Part shown: one piece after another, positions 31,735 to 45,341 of the stretch
Layout of the letters: every line of letters begins with the position of its first letter
Numbering within the stretch: position 1 is the stretch's first letter
DNA from: Candidatus Saccharimonadota bacterium
Lineage (GTDB): Bacteria; Patescibacteriota; Saccharimonadia; Saccharimonadales; Saccharimonadaceae
Assembly (NCBI GenBank): GCA_009778675.1
Contig: WRFU01000001.1
Location: forward strand, 797 to 64,796
DNA length: 64,000 nucleotides
Reading direction: 5' to 3'
Notes under the pieces: model-generated
Database searches by the model: none
What the model was told of the DNA's origin: nothing
The model's input: only the letters and a program-made list of their open reading frames with translations
Position numbers and translations under genes: made by a program

Positions 31735-34362
31735 CTAAGCTATACTTTCAGTAATCTCCAACTCATTTTTTAACCGTTGTAACAGTTTTTTGGCCTCGGT
31801 TAATTGGTGTTTGGTTTCTTCCACTAGCTCGCCGGGGGCTTTTTTAATGTAATTATCGTTATGCAGGCGCATGTCTAGCCGGGCGATTTCATCTTCTACT
31901 GCCGCTAGCCTAGCTACCAAATTAGCGTGGTGGTGCTTAAGAGTCCTGGCATCTATATCTAGCCAGGCTGCGTGCCCAGATACCGCTAGCCGCATACCGT
32001 GCGGGACATCGATATCTTGCACCTCAGTAATTGGCGCCAGTTGTTTGATTAGGCTGCGATTGGTGTCGATTAGCTGATCACTCTGGAACAACAGATTATA
32101 GCGTTTATTGCCAGGCAGCTGGTTTGTAACTAGCCGTACCTCTGTTACCAGTTGTTTGATAGACTCAAATTGTTTGGCTTCTTCGCTACCAAAATGCATT
32201 TTCTCTGGCCAATGCTCTTTAATAAGCAAGTTATCCGTCCAACTTAAGTTTTGCCAAATTGCCTCTGTTACAAATGGTGCAAAGGGGTGGGCTAATTTAA
32301 GGCTAGTTTCTAGCACGAATGCTAAAACGTCGGGATTAAAGGTTGTTTTATTGGCTTCTACGTACCAATCAGCCACGTCGTTCCAAATAGTCTGGTACAC
32401 TGCTTCGCTGGCTTCGGCAAAGCGATAGGCAGCCAGGTTGCTTTCGACACTTCGACGGGCGGCGTTTAATTGCCGCACAATCCAGTGGTCGGCTGATGTT
32501 TCTAGTTGCATATCATGTGGTTGATACGATTCTTCTAGTTTATCTTGCACAAACCGAGCGATATTCCATAATTTATTGCAAAAGTTACGGGCGGCTACCA
32601 TGTTGCTTTTGCTAAATGCCTGGCTCATACCAGCGCTGCGCCCCGCGATAATCCCCATGCGAAAGGCGTCACTGCCATATTTGGCAATCATTTCCATTGG
32701 GCTTACCACATTACCCTTGCTTTTACTCATTTTTTGACCACTTTCATCTAAGACCATGCCGTGTACGTATAGATCTTTCCAGGGAACTTGATTTGTACGG
32801 TACAGCCCCAGCATGATCATTCTAGAATCCCACGGGAACAGCAGGTCGATGCCATTTTCCATCACAGTATTGGGGTAAAAACGAGCGAGATCAGGGGTTT
32901 GGCCTGGGCGATTAATCGAATTTTTGCCCTCTTTAGGCTCGGGCTCTGTCTCGTCATCTAGATAACCAGTCGTTATAAATGGCCATTGACCGCTTGAAAA
33001 CCAAGTGTCTAGCGTATCTTCATCTCTGGTATATGTTGTGCCATTTACAACAATCTCAGTTTGATCAACTCGGGTATCAAAAACCCACTCTGGTGCATTG
33101 TCCCCTTCTTCAAATTTGCTGAACATCGGGATTGGGATACCCCAAGGTATCTGGCGTGAAATATTCCAATCACGCAAATTTTTGTAGTATCCTACCAGTA
33201 CCTTACCCTTATTATTGGGGTAAAATTTAATATCGCCGTTTTCGATAGCCGCTATAGCTTGCTTGGCCAGTGGTTTAACTTTAACGAACCACTGTTCCAT
33301 CGGTAACGGTTCGATGACGCTGCCACATTTATAACAATGCCCAACACTGTGTGTAATGGCCTTTTCGCCACGCCTTAGCCCTAGTTTTTCTAGGTCGTCT
33401 AACACTTTATCGCGGGCGGCTATGGCGGTTAACCCGCGGTAGCTATCCCCCGCTGCTGATACCATTAGGCCATCGAAACCAATCACTTGGATTCTAGGCA
33501 GATTATGCCGTTCACCCACTTCAAAATCATTCGGATCATGAGCCGGTGTGATCTTAACCGCCCCAGTACCAACAGTCATATCAGCGTGTTCGTCAGCGAT
33601 AATCGGGATTTTTCTATCTGTTAGGGGCAGCTTAACCTTTTTGCCAACTAGTTTAGCGTAACGCTTGTCTTTAGGGTTAACAGCTACAGCGGTATCACCT
33701 AGCAGGGTTTCGGGGCGAGTGGTCGAAATTACAACTTCACCGCTGCCATCGACTAGCGGATAAGCGATATCCCACAAATACCCTTTGTCATCTTGATGGT
33801 CGACTTCGATATCGGCAAAGCTAGTTTGGTGCTCGGTGCAATAATTAACAATTTTCTCACCCCTGTAAATTAGCCCATCTTCCCACATCCGCTTAAAAGT
33901 GTCATAAACTGTATCAACCACCTTTTTATCTAGGGTAAATACTAGGTCTTGCCACGAGCACGATATGCCTAGGGCGCGAATCTGTAGTTCCATATTGCCG
34001 CGTTGCTTGGCTACAAAATCCCATACTTGACCATAAAGTTGGTCACGTGAAAAATCAAACCGACTCTGCCCGATTTTCTCGAGTTCGCGTTCGTACACTA
34101 CCCAGGTTTCGAACCCAGCATGATCAGCCCCTGGTATATAGATAGTGTCAAAGCCCTTCATACGGTGGTAACGCACTAAAATATCTTTTAGACCCATTTC
34201 GAAACCATGGCCAATGTGCAGATTGCCATTGGCATTTGGCGGTGGCATTACAGTGCTATAGGGCTGGCCAGTACCACTTGGCGCAAAGGCATTTTCGCCT
34301 TCCCATAAGGCGTAAATTATTGGCTCATTTTCGTTTGGTTCGTAAGCCTTACTAAACTTCAT
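31735..34362 (-). CDS. valS: valine--tRNA ligase
   Basis: 875 aa with a HIGH-type motif (NGNLHIGHG), KMSKSKGN, and a C-terminal coiled coil. The ATG is 7 nt after TGcTATACT. Confidence 0.95.
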   Translation of the reverse strand: MKFSKAYEPNENEPIIYALWEGENAFAPSGTGQPYSTVMPPPNANGNLHIGHGFEMGLKDILVRYHRMKGFDTIYIPGADHAGFETWVVYERELEKIGQSRFDFSRDQLYGQVWDFVAKQRGNMELQIRALGISCSWQDLVFTLDKKVVDTVYDTFKRMWEDGLIYRGEKIVNYCTEHQTSFADIEVDHQDDKGYLWDIAYPLVDGSGEVVISTTRPETLLGDTAVAVNPKDKRYAKLVGKKVKLPLTDRKIPIIADEHADMTVGTGAVKITPAHDPNDFEVGERHNLPRIQVIGFDGLMVSAAGDSYRGLTAIAARDKVLDDLEKLGLRRGEKAITHSVGHCYKCGSVIEPLPMEQWFVKVKPLAKQAIAAIENGDIKFYPNNKGKVLVGYYKNLRDWNISRQIPWGIPIPMFSKFEEGDNAPEWVFDTRVDQTEIVVNGTTYTRDEDTLDTWFSSGQWPFITTGYLDDETEPEPKEGKNSINRPGQTPDLARFYPNTVMENGIDLLFPWDSRMIMLGLYRTNQVPWKDLYVHGMVLDESGQKMSKSKGNVVSPMEMIAKYGSDAFRMGIIAGRSAGMSQAFSKSNMVAARNFCNKLWNIARFVQDKLEESYQPHDMQLETSADHWIVRQLNAARRSVESNLAAYRFAEASEAVYQTIWNDVADWYVEANKTTFNPDVLAFVLETSLKLAHPFAPFVTEAIWQNLSWTDNLLIKEHWPEKMHFGSEEAKQFESIKQLVTEVRLVTNQLPGNKRYNLLFQSDQLIDTNRSLIKQLAPITEVQDIDVPHGMRLAVSGHAAWLDIDARTLKHHHANLVARLAAVEDEIARLDMRLHNDNYIKKAPGELVEETKHQLTEAKKLLQRLKNELEITESIA

Positions 34363-34430
34363 AGTTACTAGTATAGCAGATCAGTACAGTTGTCGTATTG
34401 AGCCTACAAGTTACCTAGAATTCTACAAAG

Positions 34431-34523
34431 CGTCATCCTGAACTTGTTTCAGCCGTCATTTTGGGCTCGTGAGCCGTCATCCTGAACTTGTTTCAGCCGT
34501 CATCCTGAACTTGTTTCAGGATC
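34431..34523 (+). repeat. three direct copies (plus one fragment) of the CGTCATCCTGAACTTGTTTCAG(GATC) hairpin repeat
   Basis: Copies lie at 34431..34452, 34475..34496 and 34498..34523, with a fragment at 34454..34460. The last copy supplies the GIY-YIG C-terminus (DPETSSG-stop). Confidence 0.9.
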
Positions 34524-34796
34524 TAGCAAATCTTTCCACTCGGGGTTAATACTCTCAATCAAATTTATTTTCCAGTCCCTGTGCCAATTCTTAAGCTGTT
34601 TTTCGCGCTCGATAGCACTCGTCATATCTGCACCTTCTTCATAATATACTAATTTATAGGTTTTATATTTACTGGCAAAATTTGATTTTATACCTAATCG
34701 GTGCTCGAGTACTCGCTTCGATAAGTCACTAGTAGTGCCAATATACAATGTTCCATTTTTTCGGTTCGACAAGATATAGGTGTAGGCTGTTTTCAT
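34500..34796 (-). CDS. GIY-YIG (URI) domain nuclease, UPF0213-like
   Basis: 98 aa with YTYILSNRKNGTLYIGTTSDLSKRVLEH and a typical size. It is embedded in hairpin repeats. Confidence 0.8.
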   Translation of the reverse strand: MKTAYTYILSNRKNGTLYIGTTSDLSKRVLEHRLGIKSNFASKYKTYKLVYYEEGADMTSAIEREKQLKNWHRDWKINLIESINPEWKDLLDPETSSG

Positions 34797-34818
34797 ATTG
34801 ATTATTTTATATCAAATA

Positions 34819-34843
34819 GATCCCGAAACAAGTTCGGGATGAC
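34819..34843 (-). repeat. inverted-orientation variant of the hairpin repeat
   Basis: gatcccgaaacaagttcgggatgac. Confidence 0.8.
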
Positions 34844-34927
34844 ACTATATGAATTCAGACGACTATTTCACGTGAAATAAGCACTACTTAATAATGCCTT
34901 CACGTGAAAGTTGTGTAAAACCACCTT

Positions 34928-34952
34928 GTCATGCTGAATTTATTTCAGCATC
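34928..34952 (+). repeat. divergent copy of the hairpin repeat
   Basis: gtcatgctgaatttatttcagcatc. A further degenerate copy lies near 34976..34999. Confidence 0.7.
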
Positions 34953-35048
34953 TAACTACCCTTTTTTTGCTATCTATTCTGAAACAAGTCCAGATCGACA
35001 GATAGAGCAGCCTCACTTTTTGTTTTACATAAGCATTATAACACAAAG

Positions 35049-35075
35049 TAAGCGCCCCTGGGTAGGGGGCGCTTA
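35049..35075. terminator. bidirectional terminator-like hairpin
   Basis: taagcgcccc-loop-ggggcgctta, a 10-bp stem. Confidence 0.55.
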
Positions 35076-35099
35076 TAAGTAAATGGATTTGGCGTAGAT

Positions 35100-35564
35100 T
35101 TAGTGCGGGGTCAACAGACTGTGTGTTTCGCTATCGCCGATTAGTTTAATCGTTAAAGCTGAATGATGTTTTATTCGCTCCATTATATCCTGATGTAAAT
35201 AATTCGATAAATTATCACAATCGCGGCTATCGCAAACAAAGATCAAAACTTGATTATCTGATTTTCCGCAATGCATCTTGGCATAACTAACGTGGATTTT
35301 AATAAAATCTTCATCACTCTGGAGCTCCAAGTGGGTGTCAATGACGCTTAGTTTGGTTTTCTGCCTGACGTTTTCACTGAGCAGTTGTTGTAAATATTTG
35401 GTCGCGTGGTTCAACGACTCATCGTGGCTCATAGCGTATATAGCTACTCGCTTGCCATTTATCTCTTCAGTGATTTCGGTTGCAAGATACTTCATGTAAT
35501 TAGGTCTGTCGCCTTCATCATCATCGTATCTTACAACGATAAAATGGGTTACATCGTTAGCCAT
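35100..35564 (-). CDS. hypothetical protein
   Basis: The start is moved to MANDVTHFIV (SD GGAGG 8 nt upstream). No recognisable motif. Confidence 0.45.
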   Translation of the reverse strand: MANDVTHFIVVRYDDDEGDRPNYMKYLATEITEEINGKRVAIYAMSHDESLNHATKYLQQLLSENVRQKTKLSVIDTHLELQSDEDFIKIHVSYAKMHCGKSDNQVLIFVCDSRDCDNLSNYLHQDIMERIKHHSALTIKLIGDSETHSLLTPH

Positions 35565-42037: not shown

Positions 42038-43327
42038 ATGAAAAAGATACTTGTAAAAGTAGTGCGCAAAGCTTTGCCACAAGAGGTGACGCAAAAGTTG
42101 GAAGTTAATTACCGCAAAGCCCGGCTAAGTATGCTGGATCGCTATTATGGCCGGCCGGCCAAAGGCCTAAAAGTGATCGCCATTACCGGTACCAATGGTA
42201 AAACTACCACCGCTAATTACATTAACGAGATTTTAAAAGAGGCGGGTTATAAAACCGCGATGTTCACGACCGCTGTCATAGAAATTGATGGTAAACGGAA
42301 ACGCAATGATTACAACGCTACCATACCACCGGTCAGTGTGATAGAAAAGTTCTTCGCGGCTGCCAAGCGAGTAAAAGCCGATTACGTGGTGCTAGAGGTC
42401 ACCGCCCATGCCTTAGATCAGCACAAGCTAGATAATGTGCCGATTATGATGGCTATAATGACCAACCTGACCCAAGATCATCTGGATTATTTTAAAGATA
42501 TGGATCATTATGCGGCCGTCAAAGGCCTGCTGTTTAGTGGTGAGCCGCAATATATTGTGTTAAACCGCGACGACGATTGGTTTGACTATTTTGATAAGTT
42601 TAATGCCGGCGAGCTTAAAATAACTTACGGCAAAGATAAAGATTCTAGTGTCAAAATTAGTGATTTTAAACTATACAAAAAAGGCACCGAAGCCCATCTA
42701 ACCATTAATAAAGATCGCCTAGAAGTTGCCACTAATTTACCGGGTGAGTTTAACGTGTATAACATGGCTGCCGCGGTAGCTGCCACTAGCTTACTAAATA
42801 TCACAACCGCCAATATGCAAGAGGGGATTGCTAATTTAGAAGAACTACCTGGCCGATTTGAACGTGCCGTGCAGGGTTTAAGTTACGATGTGATAGTAGA
42901 TTATGCCCATACCCCAGATGCGCTAGAAAAGTTACTGCGCAGCACCAAACAAATCACACCGGGTCGGGTAATGTTGGTGTTCGGTGCCACCGGTGACCGC
43001 GACAAAGCCAAGCGCCCCATAATGGGTGAAATTGCAGCTAAAAACGCCGATAAAATCTATGTGACCGATGAAGAGAACTATCATGAACCGGCTGACGAAA
43101 TCCGCAAAGCAGTCATGTTAGGTGTGATTCGTGGTGGCGGCGAACTAAAAACTACCGAAATCGCCGACCGCTACAAAGCTATCGAAACGGCGTTGGCTGA
43201 TGCTCGCAAGGGTGACACCATCTTGATTACAGGTATGGGTCACGAAGTTTTCCGCATAATCAACGGCAAAAAACAGCCGTGGAACGACGTGGCAGTCATC
43301 AAAGAGATTTTAGCGGAAAAATCTTAA
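42038..43327 (+). CDS. murE: Mur ligase, MurE-like
   Basis: 429 aa with AITGTNGKTTT (P-loop), Mur ligase middle and C-terminal domains, and a short N-terminal domain. The ATG is 6 nt after TGtTAGAAT. Confidence 0.7.
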   Translation: MKKILVKVVRKALPQEVTQKLEVNYRKARLSMLDRYYGRPAKGLKVIAITGTNGKTTTANYINEILKEAGYKTAMFTTAVIEIDGKRKRNDYNATIPPVSVIEKFFAAAKRVKADYVVLEVTAHALDQHKLDNVPIMMAIMTNLTQDHLDYFKDMDHYAAVKGLLFSGEPQYIVLNRDDDWFDYFDKFNAGELKITYGKDKDSSVKISDFKLYKKGTEAHLTINKDRLEVATNLPGEFNVYNMAAAVAATSLLNITTANMQEGIANLEELPGRFERAVQGLSYDVIVDYAHTPDALEKLLRSTKQITPGRVMLVFGATGDRDKAKRPIMGEIAAKNADKIYVTDEENYHEPADEIRKAVMLGVIRGGGELKTTEIADRYKAIETALADARKGDTILITGMGHEVFRIINGKKQPWNDVAVIKEILAEKS

Positions 43328-43728
43328 CGGTCAGTATCACGGTAGTGTATGGTTCTGGTACCGTTGGTAGATCCGTCCCCAACACGTATAATGTTTTCAT
43401 TAGCCAGCACATAGCCATGTTCGCGCGAAGCTGTATTGTCTTGTTCAGATATTTGGTAATCATTACCAGTTTTTCGGCCGATGCTGGTGACGCCTTCTAC
43501 TGGTACATGCCTGCCATCAGTTGGGTCAATTAAATCATAGCCGTCATCAGTTTTAGCTAGATATCCAATGGCATCACCCCAATGTAGCTCTAGTAAAGCT
43601 GTGCCTAGTTTTTTATCTTGTGCGTTATCTGTTTCATTAGAATATTCAAACTCAAAAGGTACTATGCCATCTACTGGTATGACAGTTTCACCATTATGTG
43701 TGTCGTGGACTCTTTCTTCAATGCTCAT
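43324..43728 (-). CDS. FHA-domain protein
   Basis: 134 aa. The C-terminal segment IGRKTGNDYQISEQDNTASREHGYVLANENIIRVGDGSTNGT is the FHA core pattern. Confidence 0.7.
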   Translation of the reverse strand: MSIEERVHDTHNGETVIPVDGIVPFEFEYSNETDNAQDKKLGTALLELHWGDAIGYLAKTDDGYDLIDPTDGRHVPVEGVTSIGRKTGNDYQISEQDNTASREHGYVLANENIIRVGDGSTNGTRTIHYRDTDR

Positions 43729-43754
43729 ATTTGTTTTTAATTAAATATACTATC

Positions 43755-43783
43755 ATGGTAGCATACATAGCCCATAAAGTCAA
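43755..43783 (-). promoter_or_regulatory. promoter TTGACT-17-TGcTACCAT for the FHA gene
   Basis: The minus strand reads cATTGACTttatgggctatgtaTGcTACCAT. Confidence 0.6.
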
Positions 43784-43887
43784 TGAGCAAGCAACTTAGT
43801 TAGTAGAAGGCCATTATTATGCCTTAAGTTATCCACAGGCTTAACAGGGGTAGCGAAATTTTCTTAGCACGAAATTGGCTAAAAGTG

Positions 43888-43916
43888 TTGACTTTTTAAA
43901 ACGCTTGTGCTAGTAT
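43888..43916 (+). promoter_or_regulatory. promoter TTGACT-17-TGcTAGTAT driving the hairpin-array transcript
   Basis: gTTGACTttttaaaacgcttgTGcTAGTAT. It shares the gcttgtgcta context of the promoters at 20829 and 37919. Confidence 0.6.
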
Positions 43917-44070
43917 AGAAACATGCAAGAACAGCAATGGTCTTGCAGCCGGAGAGTAAGGTTGATTGGAAAGGTGCAGCGTAAAAAACTGTTGCCTTTT
44001 TATCATCCGAGCTTTCCACCTTAACAATTAATCATCATCTGATTCATAGCTTTAGCTAGTTTGTCTAAAC

Positions 44071-44520
44071 TTTGAGCTGATCATGCGGCGAGTATGTTTT
44101 TTACCTTTTGGTTTGACTCATGCTCTTCGCATGATCGGCTTGAACAATAGACTTCAATCTAGACTTCGAGTTGGTCATGCGGTAAATATGATTTTCAAGT
44201 TTTCTTGATTTGTTGTGTTTATCGCATGACCGACTTGAACGATGGATCTTTCTAAACTTCGAGTTGGTCGTGTAGCGCATGTGCTTTTTGGTTTTTAACT
44301 TTAATTTACGTTCGCTACACGACCAGCTGGAACGATAGATTCGGCCTAAATTTTAAGCTTTGTAATCGTGGTAAATGTATTAGTTAAGTTTTCTTGATTG
44401 GTATGTTTATTGCCTTATTGGTTTAGGATCGAGCCGGTAGCTTTTACTTTCGAGTTGATCATGCGGTGAATATATTTTTAAGTTTTCTTAATTCTATGTT
44501 TATCGCACGATCAACTTGAG
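44071..44520 (+). repeat. five tandem ~94-nt units, each a 17-26 bp hairpin with a U-rich ~30-45-nt apical region
   Basis: Hairpins are R1 44071..44144, R2 44165..44239, R3 44258..44332, R4 (degenerate) ~44352..44440, and R5 44449..44520. Example arms: ttcgagttggtcatgcggtaaa / tttatcgcatgaccgacttgaa. Confidence 0.85.
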
Positions 44521-44787
44521 GTGAAGGTGTTTAGTAAAATTCTTAATCAATTGAAAGATTGGTTTTGAAAATTACTATTTACTAGCTATTTTACTTAGCG
44601 GTTTACCTCCTTTTCGCGACTGAGTATATTGATTGATGTGCGAACTAGGCTCATTACTTGGTTCTTCCCATTTTATCTATGAATTTTGTAACTTTTGTTA
44701 CTTTGGTGATTATGTTAAGACTATCGGGGTGTGCGAGTTTCAATTTGCCTTTTTGGCATCTAGTTACTTTAACACCCCGTAACCCTT

Positions 44788-44817
44788 GTGCCCGAGCCTT
44801 GCTTGGGCACTTTTCTT
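44788..44817 (+). terminator. intrinsic terminator ending the hairpin-array transcript
   Basis: gtgcccgag-ccttg-cttgggcac followed by ttttctt. Confidence 0.7.
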
Positions 44818-44883
44818 ATGGTTATATCTTGCTACAAGGCCGAGCCTTGCAGCAGAAGTTTTGGGGATCAAGAATAGTTAAAA

Positions 44884-44910
44884 TTAGCACTCGGGTATTG
44901 CAAGTGCTAA
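44884..44910 (+). promoter_or_regulatory. CIRCE operator (HrcA binding site)
   Basis: TTAGCACTC-gggtattgc-aAGTGCTAA matches TTAGCACTC-N9-GAGTGCTAA with one mismatch. It overlaps the groES promoter. Confidence 0.85.
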
Positions 44911-44926
44911 TTTTTTTCGCTAAAAT
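44898..44926 (+). promoter_or_regulatory. groESL promoter TTGCAA-17-TAAAAT
   Basis: The -35 lies inside the CIRCE right arm. Confidence 0.55.
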
Positions 44927-45089
44927 TATAAATGACATTGTGGCGTTCTTTTGCAATTTACTTTTTATGGGTACACTCTAAGGTGTGCTCCTCACAAGGG
45001 TCGTTACCCTTTGCGAGAGCCCCAGAAAAAGCAAATTGTCAAAAGAACAGCCAAAACAGTTCACAAAGGGTTAATCATAGGGAGGAATT

Positions 45090-45341
45090 ATGACTATAAA
45101 ACCGTTGGCCGATCGAATTGTGGCCAAAAAACAAGAAGCGAAAAATATGACCGATTCGGGTTTGTATCTAGGCGAGGCAAAGGAGAAACCTAGTTTTGCT
45201 GTGGTGGAGGCTGTCGGGCCCGATGTAAAATCCGTCAAAAAGGGTGATAAAATTCTTTATGATTACAGTGGCACAAGTGTCACCATCGGTGGCGAAGAAT
45301 ACTTGATTATTAAAGAAGAGGGCGTCTTGGCGACGTTATAG
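45090..45341 (+). CDS. groES: co-chaperonin GroES
   Basis: 83 aa starting MTIKPLADRIV, with SD GGGAGG. Confidence 0.9.
   Translation: MTIKPLADRIVAKKQEAKNMTDSGLYLGEAKEKPSFAVVEAVGPDVKSVKKGDKILYDYSGTSVTIGGEEYLIIKEEGVLATL

Follow-up and report, generated by a model that had tools for sequence, protein, structure and literature searches.

A candidate noncoding RNA gene with five tandem long hairpins upstream of groESL in Saccharibacteria

What occupies the 1.36-kb gap between credible genes that separates an FHA-domain gene from groES? The question was raised by a first-pass annotation of the window (the whole 64-kb stretch of Saccharibacteria DNA that was analyzed), which had placed a promoter-to-terminator unit with five tandem hairpins between an FHA-domain gene and a CIRCE-controlled groESL operon. 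The Pfam match of the FHA-domain gene and the position of the CIRCE operator agreed with this placement, and the promoter (TTGACT-17-TAGTAT with TG) and the terminator at 44788 that had been proposed were both found by scan. The transcription signals and flanking genes are listed below.

43327: end of the Mur ligase gene
43324-43728, minus strand: FHA-domain gene (Pfam FHA, E = 1e-4)
43888..43916, plus strand: sigma-70-type promoter from the promoter scan, with -35 TTGACT at 43888-43893, a 17-nt spacer, TG at 43908-43909, and -10 TAGTAT at 43911-43916
44788..44817, plus strand: intrinsic terminator with a 10-bp stem (7 G-C pairs) and a 3-nt loop, followed by UUUUCUUAU (scan match 44788-44810)
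44658..44981: TTG-start ORF of 107 aa, overlapping the 3' end of the RNA unit and spanning the terminator and CIRCE
44884-44910: CIRCE operator, 3' of the RNA-unit terminator
44898-44926: promoter-like site TTGCAA-17-TAAAAT overlapping CIRCE, 3' of the RNA terminator
45090: groES, with groEL next, downstream of the RNA unit

From these signals we infer a transcription start near 43923, and the promoter/terminator scan gave no own promoter or terminator for the individual hairpin units. The annotation had also stated that the unit contained no ORF of 60 aa or more. This was not exact, as the 107-aa TTG-start ORF overlaps the 3' end, but it held for credible ORFs. The 107-aa ORF had no Pfam match and its similarity elsewhere was limited to translated CIRCE, and we regard it as spurious, a false gene. 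It was called as a gene automatically in a public assembly (L001 1748-2071).

The proteins that flank the unit are labeled by NCBI as those of uncultured Candidatus Saccharibacteria (TM7), and the 80 groEL loci nearest to that of the window all belong to Saccharibacteria. The neighbors that could be named by Pfam were housekeeping genes, with no mobile-element or defense genes among them and no PADLOC match. The FHA protein matched only itself among 5.8 billion proteins, so it could not be used as a marker of the locus; the same-position gene in the nearest relative that has one there (contig L084) was only 26% identical to it. A perfect DnaA-box consensus TTATCCACA lies at 43829-43837, 50 nt before the RNA promoter's -35. 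A replication origin at the locus was considered and rejected, because DnaA boxes were not enriched in the window (6 found vs 8.3 expected). Elsewhere in the window there are four tandem copies of a 23-nt palindrome, CGTCATCCTGAACTTGTTTCAGC, with related inverted copies near (34431-34519, 34820-34845, and about 34979-35000); these palindromes sit in a 738-nt gap between long ORFs (34362-35100) that coincides with the cumulative GC skew minimum, and between them there is apparently a short ORF on the minus strand. The window has five tRNA genes (16371-49590), four for tRNA-Ser (anticodons TGA, GCT, CGA, and GGA) and one for tRNA-Arg (GCG).

The repeat search found copies starting at 44064, 44158, 44251, and 44442 (spacings 94, 93, and 191 nt), each of them an inverted repeat, and a degenerate fourth unit falls between the last two. 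Together with the folds of each unit, this confirmed the five tandem hairpins with a period of 93-97 nt, which are joined via 3-10-nt linkers. Tandem Repeats Finder did not report the array, and pairwise identity among the units R1 to R5 was only 42-68%. The parts of the predicted transcript are as follows, with bit scores from covariance model R2.

43924..43947, plus strand: P1, the first hairpin of the 5' domain, UGCAAGAAC...GGUCUUGCA (predicted fold)
43951..44017, plus strand: P2, an imperfect hairpin of about 67 nt (predicted fold, -27.6 kcal/mol)
44016..44028, plus strand: 13-nt block CCACCUUAACAAU, unchanged in L086 and predicted to be mostly single-stranded
44063..44152, plus strand: R1, 97.4 bits on plus and 41.4 on minus; fold -47.2 kcal/mol on plus (z = -10.2), -32.5 on minus
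44157..44247, plus strand: R2, 92.5 bits on plus and 37.1 on minus; fold -48.7 kcal/mol on plus (z = -10.5), -26.6 on minus
44250..44340, plus strand: R3, 87.7 bits on plus and 41.0 on minus; fold -41.8 kcal/mol on plus (z = -8.6), -29.9 on minus
44344..44435, plus strand: R4, the most diverged, 63.2 bits on plus and no match on minus; fold -33.3 kcal/mol on plus (z = -5.3), -6.5 on minus
44441..44528, plus strand: R5, 84.0 bits on plus and 37.7 on minus; fold -43.8 kcal/mol on plus (z = -11.3), -22.9 on minus
44529..44787, plus strand: U-rich 3' tail, with a hairpin at 44725-44779 and the block AACACCCCGUAACCCU immediately 5' of the terminator

The stem of a unit has 26-38 predicted pairs with few interruptions, and the module is laid out as a 5-bp outer helix, a small internal loop, a helix of about 26 bp in which G-U pairs keep fixed positions, and a U-rich tip whose loop is UUUU. 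A loop motif had been reported in R2, R4, and R5; it was present in all three, but the R5 copy has one mismatch (aagttttcttAatt). The 3' tail folded with z = -5.4 on the plus strand and -3.3 on the minus strand, and UUACU occurs six times in it (z = 6.4).

The next question is whether this array is an RNA or a repeat of the DNA. The whole 901-nt unit folded at -363.6 kcal/mol on the plus strand (z = -20.7) and at -236.9 on the minus strand (z = -10.7), and the predicted folds contained 41 G-U pairs on the plus strand vs 4 on the minus strand. In R4, 15 pairs are G-U. An excess of plus-strand G-U pairs had been noted before and taken to favor an RNA over a DNA repeat, and our counts went the same way. 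The five units were then aligned with a single homologous hairpin from a second genome (L086, described below), giving a common structure of 31 pairs in six hairpins. In this common stem, G-U outnumbered A-C by 35 to 3, although these cells are not independent because some of the G-U pairs were inherited. A standard pair was formed in 91.4% of the cells of the alignment, while only 35-43% of cells were paired in the slide control, in which partners were moved 1-3 columns, and none of 500 shuffles attained the observed pairing values. Changes on both sides were found in 14 of the 31 pairs, which is covariation mostly between paralogous units of one genome, as two genomes carry the locus; the paired stem changes that had been quoted for R1 to R3 were present in the sequence. 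At two positions the wobble pair recurs, as a U-G pair in six of six hairpins and as a G-U pair in five of six.

Since the units are only 42-68% identical and still paired, they are old duplicates in which the pairing has been kept. A DNA palindrome or a minus-strand RNA would not produce the asymmetry between G-U and A-C. Transcription-linked mutation bias could contribute to the G-U excess without structural selection, and this explanation also needs transcription of the plus strand. Thus, the reading as a plus-strand RNA and not a DNA repeat is supported, at the level of sequence comparison, by the G-U asymmetry, the fixed G-U positions, the compensatory changes, and the promoter and terminator kept in the second genome.

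The second genome is represented by L086, an ENA metagenome contig with the nearest GroEL (87% identical). Between the end of its Mur ligase gene (murE) and CIRCE-groES there is a 1.25-kb gap with no called genes, laid out as in the window. Its promoter has a -35 of TTGACA (TTGACT in the window), and the -10 block TGTGCTAGTATAGA is kept while the spacer has diverged. The stem of P1 is as in the window with two compensatory changes (U-A to C-G and G-C to A-U) and with 12 nt inserted into the loop, and the equivalent of P2 at 536-603 is different in sequence and folds at -30.0 kcal/mol, vs -27.6 in the window. The 13-nt block, which as DNA is CCACCTTAACAAT, matched L086 602-614 in 13 of 13 positions, and in the 5' alignment only the 14-nt -10 block is a longer identical stretch. 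The complement of the 13-nt block was not enriched in the window. The hairpin module is present as one copy at 658-785 (70 bits) that is 44-65% identical to the units of the window. It carries compensatory changes relative to R2 and a tip about 40 nt longer, and the base of the stem is kept as CUUCGAGUUGGUC / GACCAACUU (GACCRACUU). The terminator at about 1421-1450 differs from that of the window in ways that keep the stem. No ORF of the unit is conserved between the two genomes. At the position of the FHA-domain gene L086 has no gene. It reads TTTTCCACA at 403-411, 52 nt upstream of its -35 and within an otherwise poorly conserved stretch. Past CIRCE, the groES leader of the window (44927-45089) is about 100 nt longer than that of L086 and holds a 22-nt inverted repeat (arms 44945-44966 and 45027-45048).

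The two genes are not equivalent along their full length, because the distal half in L086 is A/C-rich and folds better on the minus strand. The region 600-1420 of L086 has 35% A and 12% G and carries ACUAAC nine times (0.5 expected, z = 11), while the tail of the window is the opposite, U-rich. The hairpins of the distal part are only moderate, and the better minus-strand fold covers about 920-1440. An inversion in L086, suggested by weak minus-strand model matches at 1173-1266 and 1311-1400, was rejected, as blastn gave no minus-strand similarity. Only the final 40 nt or so of the 3' tail could be aligned between the two genomes. An anti-Shine-Dalgarno-like ACCUCCUUU in both tails was dropped, because by our estimate a shared 9-mer is about what chance would give.

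Further copies and known families were then searched for. Rfam 15 (4227 models) at gathering thresholds gave five tRNAs only in the window, so the Rfam check suggested with the annotation gave no family for the RNA unit. In E-value mode (E up to 10) over 43700-45100, the array gave matches of only 15-29 bits, far below family thresholds; these were hairpin-shaped, and all but one were miRNA precursor models (thresholds 53-211 bits). A 19-nt arm pattern with up to 3 mismatches matched in the 64-kb window at the RNA locus only. The covariance-model search that had been proposed was run with two models on the window and about 735 kb of DNA from 90 Saccharibacteria loci. It recovered the five units and, as the one further hairpin, that of L086, with overall scores of 63-97 bits on the plus strand and 36-41 on the minus strand; model R1 gave no hairpin on 80 groEL loci of GTDB Saccharibacteria. 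When the whole unit was compared with all loci by blastn and nhmmer, similarity beyond CIRCE was limited to L086 and to L083, a contig of the same sample as L086 whose sequence includes this promoter and roughly the first 50 nt of the RNA before it stops (3241). CIRCE was the sole part of the region common to most relatives (40 loci in the same searches). Distant-mode blastn against phages and plasmids gave no match, the hairpin pattern and the 5'-domain pattern gave chance matches or none in viral contigs, and a metagenome scan with GGTCTTGN{60,80}CCACCTTAACAAT gave 19 chance matches, none of them similar to the locus, in a collection that lacks the source contig. Our literature searches found neither such an RNA nor any regulatory RNA described for Saccharibacteria or for other CPR bacteria of ultrasmall size.

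The distribution is therefore narrow, with two genomes. The unit was absent at the locus in L087 (86% GroEL identity), L110 (81%), and L127 (78%), in L088-L090 and L111-L112 (80%), and in the GTDB set (72-77%). In the six closest relatives without it, the gap 5' of groES is only 75-312 nt, and in the syntenic GTDB examples that we inspected, protein genes occupy the interval between murE and groES. Because the other relatives checked at the locus do not have the unit, the gene probably originated in, or was inserted into, an ancestor common to L086 and the window genome. The amplification of the hairpin would be about as old as the split of these two lineages, because the identity between units (42-68%) is about the same as that between the L086 hairpin and the units (44-65%). 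In L086, copies may have been lost or eroded. L083 breaks off within the RNA's 5' domain, and the end of L084 (2047) lies 25 nt past its FHA-like gene; contig ends at or near the locus in relatives may come from strain variation or from repeats that break assembly.

The most likely answer to the opening question is a clade-restricted, stand-alone RNA that is absent from Rfam. We propose that a plus-strand transcript would run from the conserved sigma-70 promoter to the conserved intrinsic terminator, 5' of the separately controlled groESL, and would carry in order the conserved 5' domain (P1, P2, and the single-stranded CCACCUUAACAAU), the hairpin module or modules (five in tandem in the window and one in L086), and a variable tail. 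Each module would be recognized at the base of its stem as double-stranded RNA, and then either a double-strand-specific protein would bind it or a nuclease such as RNase III would excise it, so that the RNA would act as a dose-scalable precursor or decoy. An autonomous module read at its base is suggested by the length of the stems, by sequence conservation at the stem base and not in the loop, and by the variable copy number; recognition at the base is suggested because CUUCGAGUUGGUC / GACCRACUU is kept in both genomes while the tips differ by an insertion of about 40 nt. The stems are also far longer than the display of a loop needs. RNase III generally cuts dsRNA helices of about 20 bp or more, so the hairpins would be expected to be sensitive to it; this cleavage explains why bacterial RNAs seldom have such stems.

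For the stand-alone RNA gene together with this mechanism, we give a rough probability of 0.55, which is a compromise figure for two parts of different strength. That the locus of about 0.9 kb is a noncoding RNA gene on the plus strand is very probable. That each hairpin is an autonomous double-stranded module, bound by a protein or cut by a nuclease, is a tentative proposal. A bolder version, which we hold to be slightly more doubtful still, is that the hairpin is the recognition unit of a dsRNA-binding protein or nuclease in a new class of Saccharibacteria riboregulator, working as a tunable decoy or as a precursor of multiple sRNAs. This class would be like microRNA clusters in shape only and might be linked to the epibiotic lifestyle.

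The explanation that survives best beside this one is that the product is an sRNA of about 80 nt, made of P1 and the terminator-like tip of P2, and that the array is read-through with little or no function of its own. The tip of P2 (43976-43995, followed by CUUUUUAUC) was flagged by the terminator scan and looks like an attenuator or intrinsic terminator; both genomes have at this point a stem with a U run behind it, and the 5' domain is the best-conserved part of the unit. The tip could stop most transcripts after about 80 nt, and it also allows a variant in which read-through into the array is regulated. But the conserved 13-nt block and the conserved hairpin both lie 3' of this U run, the old and diverged hairpins keep more than 90% pairing with a G-U bias, and both genomes have a second, strong terminator at the end of the unit, which makes the short product unlikely as the whole story.

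Less likely again is a palindromic repeat of the DNA, selfish or neutral and either MITE-like or a palindrome minisatellite, that expanded between genes and is merely co-transcribed. The unit length and palindromic form are like those of Correia, ERIC, and RUP-type elements, the copy number varies between relatives, and the related contigs L083 and L084 end at or near the locus. A dispersed MITE had been named in the annotation as what would speak against an RNA, but the searched DNA (the 64-kb window and about 735 kb of other Saccharibacteria loci) held no dispersed copies, the phage, plasmid, and viral collections gave nothing, and the sole copy in L086 is at the orthologous position. Strand asymmetry and fixed G-U pairs are unexpected for a DNA palindrome, and no transposase is nearby.

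A role in cis on groESL, either as a long leader or as a regulator placed 5' of the operon, is very unlikely; read-through and a thermosensor are examples of how it might work. In both genomes the unit immediately precedes groESL and has the same orientation, but a strong terminator lies between them, CIRCE and the overlapping promoter-like site come only after this terminator, and the other relatives checked have the CIRCE-groES arrangement without the RNA. Strand-specific hairpins of single-stranded DNA, like attC sites, IS200/IS605 ends, or single-strand origins, are more improbable still: DNA hairpins also tolerate G-T wobble and strand asymmetry alone is not exclusive to RNA, but RYYYAAC is absent from 44060-44530 and GTTRRRY occurs there once, by chance, the genes scanned on either side include no integrase, transposase, or Rep, and the promoter and terminator are conserved around the array. 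Equally improbable is the reading as a repeat RNA like the type III antitoxins, or as a bifunctional RNA encoding a 33-aa peptide, both raised in the annotation and now largely refuted, for although the order of promoter, repeats, terminator, and gene resembles toxIN loci and the ORF 43923..44024 exists, the downstream gene is groES, no neighbor has a PADLOC match to a defense system, the units are 93-97-nt hairpins and not pseudoknots of about 36 nt, and the orthologous L086 sequence has no ATG and stops in all three frames.

What we describe is thus a well-delimited candidate for a regulatory RNA in Saccharibacteria. Its transcription signals are clear, and its hairpins are strand-specific, unusually long, and still paired after old duplications. 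If the hairpins are processed or bound by a protein, a layer of regulation would be shown in organisms with very small genomes, and the hairpin of about 90 nt would be a simple handle for pull-down.

Several known systems resemble parts of this unit. The Correia/NEMIS, ERIC, RUP, and BOX elements are also imperfect palindromes of about 90-130 nt that give long RNA hairpins, and Correia elements are RNase III substrates, but they are dispersed in tens to hundreds of copies, whereas the present hairpins are in tandem at a single locus, within a transcription unit that is conserved. Type III antitoxin RNAs such as ToxI share with the present RNA the single promoter, the tandem repeats, the terminator past the array, and units that could be excised singly; theirs are pseudoknots of about 34-45 nt with a toxin gene, in contrast to hairpins of 93-97 nt followed by groES. 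STAXI and similar tandem motifs in Rfam also repeat a structured unit in noncoding DNA, but our unit matched no Rfam model, and it differs in structure and in genomic context. Consecutive long hairpins on one transcript are likewise a feature of polycistronic microRNA precursor clusters and of the RNase III processing hairpins of phage T7; this resemblance is of shape only, with no sequence or family relation, and to our knowledge no bacterial pathway uses products like those of microRNA clusters. Sponges of the CsrB, RsmX-Y-Z, and CrcZ type are like the present RNA in being stand-alone, with their own promoter and terminator and a repeated module of variable copy number. The sponge logic of CsrB/RsmZ that the annotation had suggested does not apply in the strict sense, because those RNAs present GGA or A-rich motifs in loops or single strands, whereas all five GGA of this transcript are in or bordering paired stretches (none in hairpin loops) and the part that is conserved here is the base of the stem.
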